Shown here one piece after another: positions 1 through 1,140 of a DNA stretch of 1,140 nucleotides. The position numbers and the translations under genes were made by a program. Numbering within the stretch: the stretch's first letter is position 1; every line of letters starts with the position of its first letter. The DNA lies in assembly GCA_000004985.1 (NCBI GenBank), contig GG739534.1. One strand, 5' to 3'. This DNA comes from Naegleria gruberi. Lineage: Eukaryota. The notes under the pieces are model-generated. The model did no database searches. It was given only the letters and a program-made list of their open reading frames with translations, and had not been told where the DNA came from.

Positions 1-203
1 GACGTATAGACAGCTTGTGGCATCTTCTTTAGTTTTAGCCATCTCCTTTGGATGTCTATCTTGAGGGAAGACAACTGGACAGAATTGATAAGCAATAACG
101 ATTGGTGTTTCATCAGTTCCAGTATTTTCAGCAACGACACTAATTGGTTTAGCTCTATCATTTGGCCACATTGGAGAAAGATAATCTCCTTGGTTCAAAA
201 TCC
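1..203 (-). CDS. Exon 2 of the same hypothetical gene, continuing beyond the window start. It encodes (G)ILNQGDYLSPMWPNDRAKPISVVAENTGTDETPIVIAYQFCPVVFPQDRHPKEMAKTKEDATSCLYV...
   Basis: A minus-strand frame is open from directly after the proposed 3'ss (GG at 203..202 completes a Gly codon) through position 1. That is 67 full codons with no stop and globular-looking composition. The codon bias (AGA, TTG, CCA, GCT) matches the plus gene. The plus-strand ORF 52..243 supplied in the track is the antisense of this region and translates to W/S/I-rich junk. I could not assign the product to a family from memory, so no function is called. Confidence 0.5.
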
Positions 204-266
204 CTTAAAGTTAATCATTGTCTTAATCAGAAAATATCCTTGAAGGTTCTTTTGGTTTAACAATAC
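204..266 (-). other. Putative 63-nt spliceosomal intron, phase 1.
   Basis: Read on the minus strand it is gtattgttaaaccaaaagaaccttcaaggatattttctgattaagacaatgattaactttaag. It begins CAG|GTATTG, a 5'ss-like motif that lacks the usual G at +5. It contains TTCTGAT, a CTRAY-type branch-like motif. It ends TTTAAG|GG, and that AG is the first AG at least 10 nt (about 22 nt) downstream of the branch A. It carries three in-frame TAA codons that would terminate unspliced translation. Removing it joins a 39-codon exon to a frame that is open to the window edge. A 5'-proximal intron is typical of yeast genes. Not verified by any splice predictor or transcript data. Confidence 0.38.
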
Positions 267-384
267 CTGCCATAGATGTTTCTTTTGCAACAAAACCAGT
301 TAATTTTGACAGGGCTCCACCTCCTAATAAAGAAATGGCTTGCTTCTTTGCTTTTAAAGATTCACACTCTACACTCTGAAACAT
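267..384 (-). CDS. Exon 1 of a putative intron-containing gene for a small hypothetical protein. It encodes MFQSVECESLKAKKQAISLLGGGALSKLTGFVAKETSMA plus the first base of a Gly codon.
   Basis: On the minus strand, an ATG at 384..382 is the first in-frame ATG after an in-frame TGA at 396..394. The frame stays open for 39 codons and ends at G(267), immediately followed by GTATTG at 266..261 as a candidate 5' splice site. Amino-acid composition is protein-like. AGA, TTG and GGT codon choice matches the plus-strand gene. Caveat: two out-of-frame upstream ATGs (397, 391) lie just 5' of this start. Confidence 0.42.
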
Positions 385-397
385 TCCACATTTTCAT
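362..397 (-). other. Short upstream ORF (MKMWNVSECRV*) that overlaps the proposed main start codon out of frame.
   Basis: Minus-strand ATGs at 397 and 391 share a frame. That frame runs 12 codons to a TGA at 364..362 and overlaps the proposed main ATG at 384 in the +1 frame. It could be a regulatory uORF, or it could mean the true 5' end of the gene differs from my model. Confidence 0.2.
364..377. repeat. Perfect tandem duplication of a 7-mer, ACACTCT x2, inside exon 1 of the minus gene (it encodes SVECE).
   Basis: Direct reading gives acactct at 364-370 and acactct at 371-377. Confidence 0.6.
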
Positions 398-695
398 TCG
401 AAACTAATTTCTCAACAATTGCTCCAAAATTTATGCAATTAAGGGCTGATAAGAAAAGTTTTGAACTATTTATGAAAGGTTGACGAGAAGATAGGTCCAC
501 TATTTAATCATTCATTTAAGAAATATTTGAATTATCAAAATTATTTTAAAGAATTTTGTCATAATTACATGGATTTCTGTAAATCGTTCATCCGACAACT
601 CATCTAACTTCATTCCTTTCTTATGATTAAAATTAGACGTTGACAATCAAAAAATCAACACCTTTTTTTACAACATCTTTCCAATTCAAAAAAAA
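385..695. promoter_or_regulatory. Shared divergent intergenic and promoter region between the minus-strand gene (start 384) and the plus-strand gene (start 696).
   Basis: It is AT-rich and non-coding in all six frames. It has poly(dA:dT) tracts at 648-655 (A6), 662-669 (T7) and 687-695 (A9), which are typical nucleosome-excluding yeast promoter elements. A TATA-like cATAAATAg lies on the minus strand at about 467-475, roughly 85 nt upstream of the minus-gene ATG. TATTTAAT lies at about 503-510. A repeated TTGAC(G/A) core occurs at 479-484 and 640-645. Confidence 0.4.
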
Positions 696-1140
696 ATGCT
701 CAAAACCAAGCCTTCTTCCTCTTCTTTGGCTTCTAATGTTGGTGGTGGCACCACCGATCTAAATAATAGTAGCACTCTTAGTATGAATAATAGTCATCAA
801 CGGATTAAACCAGTGAAGGCTTTTAATTCAACTTCAACAAAATTCTTCTCTGGCTTGTTGTCTGCCATTCCAAATCCGAAGAATATTACATCAGCTATCG
901 GGAATGAAATTAGAGAAATTACGCCACGTAGAAAGAAGGAGAAGAGAGATGTAAATAATCAAAAGCAGGGAATTTCCTTCTCGGAGTGGCTTAGCTTTAG
1001 GAAACCACCTACTAAAAGTGCAACAACAAGTGCAAAATCAAATGATAATCAAGAATCTGAAATTGCTATTGATACAATCAATTTGAGAGATTTTTTGAAA
1101 CAATTGGATAATTTGGATAAAGATGATTCATTTGAAGAAT
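696..1140 (+). CDS. 5' part of a hypothetical protein gene, 148 codons and open at the window end. It is low-complexity Ser/Asn/Thr-rich with a basic cluster. It encodes MLKTKPSSSSLASNVGGGTTDLNNSSTLSMNNSHQRIKPVKAFNSTSTKFFSGLLSAIPNPKNITSAIGNEIREITPRRKKEKRDVNNQKQGISFSEWLSFRKPPTKSATTSAKSNDNQESEIAIDTINLRDFLKQLDNLDKDDSFEE...
   Basis: ATG at 696 is the first ATG after an in-frame TGA at 624..626. An A9 tract (687..695) gives a yeast-optimal start context (A at -3, A-rich leader). No stop occurs in 148 codons to the window edge. Codon usage is yeast-like (AGA x4, TTG, GGT, CCA, TCT). The ORF is absent from the supplied track, presumably because it has no stop codon inside the window. Function not recognisable from sequence alone. 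Confidence 0.6.
   Translation, partial: MLKTKPSSSSLASNVGGGTTDLNNSSTLSMNNSHQRIKPVKAFNSTSTKFFSGLLSAIPNPKNITSAIGNEIREITPRRKKEKRDVNNQKQGISFSEWLSFRKPPTKSATTSAKSNDNQESEIAIDTINLRDFLKQLDNLDKDDSFEE

Follow-up and report, generated by a model that had tools for sequence, protein, structure and literature searches.

Does the minus strand of bases 1..384 carry a protein-coding gene that is interrupted by a short intron, as the initial annotation of this locus proposed, or is the sequence better read in some other way? The stretch of DNA analyzed here, referred to as the window, is 1,140 nucleotides long, and its first 384 bases had been described as two protein-like open stretches on the minus strand, a GT-AG segment with a branch motif between them, and a single plus-strand open reading frame (ORF) that was thought to be artefactual. 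The coordinates given for the stretches, the segment, the motif and the plus-strand ORF were all recovered from the sequence. Taken as a whole, the window covers the 5' ends of two divergent eukaryotic genes with yeast-like composition, one on the minus strand within 1..384 and the other on the plus strand at 696..1139, with a divergent, AT-rich spacer of 311 bp (385..695, without strand) as their presumed shared promoter region. That the minus strand is the coding strand in 1..384, and that this region is the start of an ordinary eukaryotic protein gene, is supported by the data presented below. The source is probably an AT-rich eukaryote with a compact genome and with codon usage like that of Candida-type yeasts. 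Given that the gene of 1..384 stays open at the window edge, it continues beyond base 1.

The two open minus-strand stretches, 384..267 and 203..1, are 63 nt apart and share one frame, and the three in-frame stops are confined to the segment between them (TAA at 225..223, 213..211 and 207..205), exactly as had been claimed. Removal of 266..204 leaves one ORF of 107 codons without a stop and reproduces the 107-aa peptide quoted in the initial annotation. Candidate exon 1 (267..384, minus strand) starts with the ATG at 384..382 and is an open frame of 118 nt (39 codons plus one base), encoding MFQSVECESLKAKKQAISLLGGGALSKLTGFVAKETSMA followed by the G of a split Gly codon. Candidate exon 2 (1..203, minus strand) contributes the two bases that finish this Gly codon and 67 further codons, and its peptide, ILNQGDYLSPMWPNDRAKPISVV...SCLYV, is open to base 1.

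To judge whether these stretches are protein-like, we used three measures: a codon table derived from the long ORFs of a Candida contig (L001; ENA ERZ1332557 tig00000064), a model of position-specific composition trained on the neighboring divergent gene only, and a test of amino-acid frequencies, with approximate values for the average protein, in which each segment was compared with stop-free shuffles of its own nucleotides. For exon 2, the Candida-derived table gave +33.0 bits in the proposed frame and at most -1.6 bits in the other five, while the model trained on the neighboring gene gave +9.3 bits compared with at most -4.9 in the other five. Its amino-acid composition was exceeded by only 0.03% of the shuffles (p=3e-4), and per codon it scored 0.49 bits, compared with 0.32 bits in the neighboring intact gene. 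Exon 1 is shorter, and its score of +8.8 bits with the same Candida-derived table was reached by 5% of intergenic windows. With the neighboring-gene model it scored +3.4 to +4.5 bits, above all 234 intergenic window/frame controls, even though one antisense frame of exon 1 scored much like the coding frame; its amino-acid composition was exceeded by 0.04% of the shuffles (p=4e-4). Both minus-strand stretches therefore look like genuine coding sequence.

We also asked how often such an arrangement would arise by chance, holding exon 2 fixed and simulating the 61 codons upstream of it with a first-order Markov model trained on either the intergenic spacer or the whole window. An in-frame, ATG-initiated ORF of at least 53 codons, which is the actual length to the TAA at 225, appeared upstream of exon 2 with p=0.003-0.005, and one of at least 39 codons with p=0.02-0.03. 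The exon 1/exon 2 arrangement thus exceeds chance. Moreover, the stretch of 11 in-frame codons that follows the last TAA and precedes the first in-frame ATG of exon 2 (169..171, MWPND...; the alternative start if the transcript is unspliced) scores as coding-like (p=0.014-0.036) and contains no ATG; coding sequence thus appears to reach upstream of ATG171, which would call for splicing to a start further upstream. The start context of ATG171 is itself poor, with a C at -3. An AAGGAG considered as a Shine-Dalgarno sequence for ATG171 was dismissed, as it is 14 nt away and too distant, and a prokaryotic or viral origin of the locus was likewise rejected on account of the missing family matches and the eukaryote-like low-complexity proteins.

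The only ORF that a prokaryote-style ORF track reports in this region lies on the opposite strand, at 52..243, and had been suspected to be an antisense artefact with a peptide rich in W, S and I. Both points held: the peptide has this bias, and the ORF shares the triplet boundaries of the minus-strand frame, making it a codon-aligned shadow of exon 2. Indeed, all six TGG (Trp) codons of the plus frame 10..243 sit opposite CCA Pro codons, and what keeps this frame open is the absence of TTA, CTA and TCA among the minus-frame codons beneath it (199..10). The plus-strand ORFs 52..240 and 276..404 are compositionally unremarkable, with 91% and 29% of shuffles scoring higher (p=0.91 and 0.29, respectively). 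Three of the six reading frames remain open over exon 2, namely the coding frame, a Leu-rich minus-strand frame (190..1) and the plus frame 10..243, and the codon and composition tests were passed by the coding frame alone. With three open frames of which one is coding, the locus illustrates how biased codon usage creates shadow ORFs. The converse reading, with 52..243 as the true gene and the open minus-strand frames as shadows of it, can point to an ORF that is complete from ATG to stop over 63 codons. It would, however, require a protein with 8% Trp, each residue being the complement of a preferred Pro codon (CCA), with a composition no better than that of shuffles (p=0.91), encoded in a strand whose three frames over exon 2 all score at or below -1.6 bits, whereas the minus frame reaches +33.0. 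For 52..243 we found no Pfam, PHROG or NCBIfam match, no exact record and no homolog in collections that barely cover yeasts. As a gene, the plus-strand ORF is effectively refuted.

What, then, separates the two coding stretches? On the minus strand, the segment 266..204 reads GTATTGTTAAACCAAAAGAACCTTCAAGGATATTTTCTGATTAAGACAATGATTAACTTTAAG. With GT at 266..265 and AG at 205..204 it has the ends that were ascribed to it (GTATTG...TTTAAG), and as an intron it would be 63 nt long, of phase 1, a multiple of three in length and carry the three in-frame TAA codons. Altogether 111 GT..AG pairs would clear all stops, and 266/204 is the tightest of those keeping the frame of exon 2; acceptors at AG189 (190..189; a 78-nt intron) and AG186 (187..186; 81 nt) are in-frame alternatives. 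The GC content drops to 27.0% in the segment, similar to the spacer (26.7%), from 37.3% in exon 1 and 39.4% in exon 2, with 35.3% in the neighboring gene. RNA folding of the candidate intron revealed nothing unusual (z=0.37), and a search for repeats returned no target-site duplication, repeat or insertion footprint beside the segment.

The splice signals fit less well. The candidate 5' splice site, read directly from the sequence as CAG/GTATTG (intron bases 261..266, minus strand; the slash marks the exon-intron boundary), matches the budding-yeast consensus GTATGT at 4/6 positions and has no G at +5. Neither GTAWGT nor GTANGT, nor any other canonical splice signal, occurs anywhere on the minus strand of the gene. 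CAG/GUA provides five contiguous pairs with U1. As branch site, the motif TTCTGAT had been put forward; it is present (226..232, minus strand), its CTGAT fits CTRAY and it ends 20 nt before the AG, but CTRAY occurs five times on the minus strand of the 1140-nt window and is therefore weak branch evidence on its own. GATTAAC (210..216, minus strand) is the better candidate. It agrees with the yeast consensus TACTAAC at 5/7 positions, and it is the sole TACTAAC-like 7-mer in the segment (at most two mismatches, branch A kept), in which neither ACTAAC nor CTAAC was found. At the third position of the motif, U in place of C still pairs with U2 by a G-U wobble. GATTAAC is followed by TTTA and then by the AG, a spacing of 4 nt that counts only if GATTAAC is the branch site. 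The 3' splice site AAG/G (204..206, minus strand) carries AAG and not YAG. In published comparisons, ACTAAC is found in 95% of C. albicans introns, and the distance from branch site to AG is 6-8 nt in D. hansenii, 4-5 in C. lusitaniae and 3 in C. guilliermondii (Irimia and Roy, PMC2483917), while a strong 6-nt 5' consensus and a strong 7-nt branch consensus hold across Saccharomycotina (Dujon and Louis, PMC5499181). The splice signals are thus weak and off the strict consensus expected for the assumed Candida/Saccharomycetales origin. The intron originally proposed at 266/204 is therefore plausible, as the most economical way of joining two in-frame stretches, each protein-like in its own right, across a GC-poor segment to which the stops are confined, whereas the splice signals do not conform to the budding-yeast consensus.

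Nor do codon statistics mark the segment as non-coding. With the stops left out, its in-frame codons score 0.37 bits/codon with the Candida-derived table, compared with 0.23 in exon 1, so that the segment scores like exon 1. Read through, these codons (GIVKPKEPSRIFSD.DND.L., with dots for the stops) are preferred ones apart from the three TAA. This coding-like character may be a chance outcome in so few codons (18), point to coding sequence that became an intron recently, or indicate that the 53-aa ORF is translated. We also noted that a 16-nt AT-rich motif, TTAATCATTGTCTTAA (211..226, plus strand), recurs as TTAATCATTCATTTAA (504..519, plus strand) with 81% identity; one copy lies in the candidate intron and the other in the spacer, and the resemblance is likely due to chance in AT-rich DNA.

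Weighing these observations, we consider a 63-nt GT-AG intron at 266..204 the best single explanation, and one that we hold to be somewhat better than an even bet. According to this model, bases 1..384 would make up the 5' end of a nuclear, protein-coding, minus-strand gene transcribed from the 311-bp divergent spacer, and a phase-1 intron of the U2 type would break its coding sequence after codon 39, with the signals CAG/GUAUUG at the 5' site, most likely GAUUAAC (216..210) as branch site 4 nt before the 3' site, and AAG/G at the 3' site. Splicing would join 384..267 to 203..1 and give MFQS...ETSMAG/ILNQGDYLSPMW..., while translation of unspliced RNA would stop at the TAA at 225 after 53 codons, and such RNA would probably be degraded. 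The intron reading draws on the confinement of all three stops to one 63-nt GT...AG segment whose removal gives a 107-codon ORF, on the finding that exon 1 and exon 2 are each protein-like and the plus-strand ORFs are not, and on the GC drop together with GATTAAC 4 nt before the AG, a CTG-clade-like spacing. Against it count the 5' site GTATTG without the near-invariant G at +5, the missing ACTAAC, an AAG in place of YAG, the coding-like codons of the segment, a length of 3n that is required only under readings without an intron, and the two out-of-frame AUGs 7 and 13 nt upstream of ATG384. Splicing itself and the exact 3' site (204, 189 or 186) are to be taken as predictions. Even if real, the intron is an ordinary spliceosomal intron.

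The most serious competitor, which we nonetheless regard as unlikely, dispenses with splicing altogether. The main protein would then start at ATG171 (MWPNDRAKP...), and 384..223 would be a 53-codon upstream ORF, in frame with it by coincidence, that acts as a regulatory or small-peptide ORF or is a remnant, lying either within the transcript of the main protein or in the promoter region. This would accommodate splice signals that are poor for a yeast, as well as the observation that the 14 codons past the putative 5' site match exon 1 in coding character, such that the ORF may run on to the TAA at 225. Divergent spacers of 524 bp (172..695), as this reading implies, are moreover more typical of yeasts than 311 bp. 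It leaves unexplained, however, why the 11 codons before ATG171 look like coding sequence when no ATG lies between the last stop and ATG171, and it places the start in a poor context, the C at -3. In addition, ribosomes would have to pass over four AUGs (397, 391, 384 and 273) unless the transcript begins within 204..266, the agreement in frame would be a one-in-three coincidence, and an upstream ORF of 53 codons that is strongly protein-like would be unusual. Less probable still, in our judgment, is a disabled or decaying gene copy, a local insertion or an assembly error, whereby a continuous ORF 384..1 gained three TAA within 21 nt and no full-length protein is made. The frame 384..1 is indeed coding-like throughout, the segment included, save for the three TAA, the segment has a length of 3n and the splice signals are weak. 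Yet random decay would not be expected to crowd three nonsense codons into 21 nt and spare the frame's other 121 codons, exon 2 has a higher codon score than the neighboring intact gene (0.49 vs 0.32 bits/codon) and the segment is not flanked by a target-site duplication or repeat.

A variant nuclear code, with TAA read as Gln as in ciliates or as Glu as in Blastocrithidia, would likewise turn 384..1 into one ORF (…IFSD[E/Q]DND[E/Q]L[E/Q]GILNQ…). We consider this very improbable, although the internal stops are all TAA while both of those preceding ATG384 are TGA, the segment keeps the frame and has coding-like codons and, with Glu, the local peptide would form a natural acidic patch. Outside the segment, TAA and TAG account for 0/254 codons, compared with three in seven codons inside it, a distribution that is improbable under any uniform usage; furthermore, the 10 Gln codons outside the segment are without exception CAA or CAG and the 15 Glu codons GAA or GAG, and both the distance between the genes and the A-rich start context resemble those of yeasts. 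Finally, the signals that are all off-consensus, the coding-like codons and the 3n length led us to consider that the 63-nt in-frame segment might be no routine intron, being either an element that a yeast with a strict consensus splices weakly or under certain conditions only, or a patch in which TAA is read as sense. There is a small chance that one of the two applies, and the sense-TAA patch is the less likely. In the conditional version, a recently intronised piece of coding sequence could switch an orphan gene between a 53-aa and a full-length product.

Returning to the favored reading, a spliced gene, its start codon is probably that at 384 or that at 273. Two out-of-frame ATGs, at 397 and 391 (13 and 7 nt upstream of ATG384), define an 11-codon upstream ORF (362..397, minus strand; TGA at 364..362) that overlaps ATG384, and they speak mildly against ATG384 as the first AUG in the mRNA. 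This short ORF may be a small regulatory element or hint that transcription or translation starts elsewhere. An additional upstream exon, spliced at the TTTCAG of 381..376, was discarded, as the spacer has no 5' site or branch motif. Two weak similarities were noted in the same region. Residues 12-34 (283..351, minus strand), KKQAISLLGGGALSKLTGFVAKE, resemble the GGG..D.aGF motif of 3-dehydroquinate synthases (DHQS) in two independent libraries. A DHQS-like identity was rejected, with 12.8 bits against a cut-off of 24.2 for PF01761 (Pfam) and 11.9 against 305 for TIGR01357; merely 23 residues match (GGG..L.GFVA) in an unfitting context, and the match is regarded as chance. Overlapping the start-codon region of the minus-strand gene, 373..430 (minus strand) matches the C/D-box snoRNA SNORD69 below threshold (23 bits vs a gathering threshold of 37, E=0.22), probably also by chance.

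The spacer 385..695 has 4-13 stops per frame and contains no tRNA and no Rfam family above threshold. The neighboring gene (696..1139, plus strand) runs off the window after 148 open codons from ATG696, which is preceded by a run of nine A, and it encodes an N-terminus of low complexity rich in Ser, Asn and Thr; with the Candida-derived table it scores +47.0 bits in frame and at most 7.6 in the other frames. For this gene we detected no homolog and no Pfam domain. The spliced 107-aa peptide had no match in a word-indexed collection of 5.8 G proteins, in which yeasts are barely covered, and an exhaustive HMMER search against 1.84 G representatives, with the same scant coverage of yeasts, yielded only a repetitive junk protein (P0001). 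PDB, PHROGs and NCBIfam returned nothing for it, and Pfam only the sub-threshold DHQ synthase patch. Scans with peptide patterns of metagenome, viral and prokaryote genome contigs found none, blastn of the whole window against phages and plasmids produced no match, and the exact look-up of two complete ORFs retrieved no record. As a control, we queried a chimera of the plus-strand ORF and a piece of C. albicans Ece1, which returned two fragmentary ENA gene calls with 92-95% identity and no reference entry; the half of the query derived from the plus-strand ORF had no matches. Since even this control recovered only two fragments, the lack of homologs says little for a yeast gene, and proteomes of eukaryotic isolates seem to be largely absent from the collections searched. 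The two Ece1 matches are P0002 and P0003, and the contig carrying the latter, L001, shows gene calls fragmented by frameshifts. A single-sequence AlphaFold model was uninformative (pLDDT 35).

The main value of this locus is as a lesson in annotation. The warning that ORF-based annotation would get it wrong was justified, as the prokaryote-style track reports the shadow at 52..243 on the plus strand and misses the minus-strand gene; such a track would moreover cut that gene short, or break it in two, at the 63-nt segment. A genuine intron here would be a further example of a short intron near the 5' end, and its three off-consensus signals would be of mild interest only if the source proved to be a budding yeast with a strict consensus. 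The locus bears on no open biological question.

How does the candidate intron compare with known introns? As a single short, AT-rich, 5'-proximal intron of the GT...AG type, it resembles those of budding yeasts such as Candida albicans and Debaryomyces hansenii, and the TACTAAC-like motif 4 nt from the AG is similar to what is found in CTG-clade introns (PMC2483917); the host codons fit the Candida-derived table. It differs from budding-yeast introns in having GTATTG and not GTATGT or GTAAGT, GATTAAC and not (T)ACTAAC, and AAG and not YAG, three simultaneous deviations that would be exceptional for Saccharomycotina (PMC2483917, PMC5499181). The length of about 60 nt, the CAG/GTA junction, the AG/G acceptor and the CTGAT 20 nt before the AG are instead reminiscent of the short, Schizosaccharomyces-type introns of intron-richer fungi and protists. 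Even in those organisms, whose signals are degenerate, a G at +5 and YAG are still preferred, and, unlike their genes, the 650 coding bases of the window show no second or other intron. Introns in meiotic genes of S. cerevisiae also deviate from the consensus and are regulated, for example HOP2 with GUUAAG and MER3/HFM1 with GUAGUA; the candidate shares with them a 5' site without G at +5, which would imply inefficient or regulated splicing. Lastly, a study on Yarrowia lipolytica (PMC2911113) describes introns of length 3n with in-frame stops whose retained transcripts are degraded by nonsense-mediated decay (NMD); the candidate intron, with a length that is a multiple of three and three premature in-frame stops, offers a parallel of structure only.
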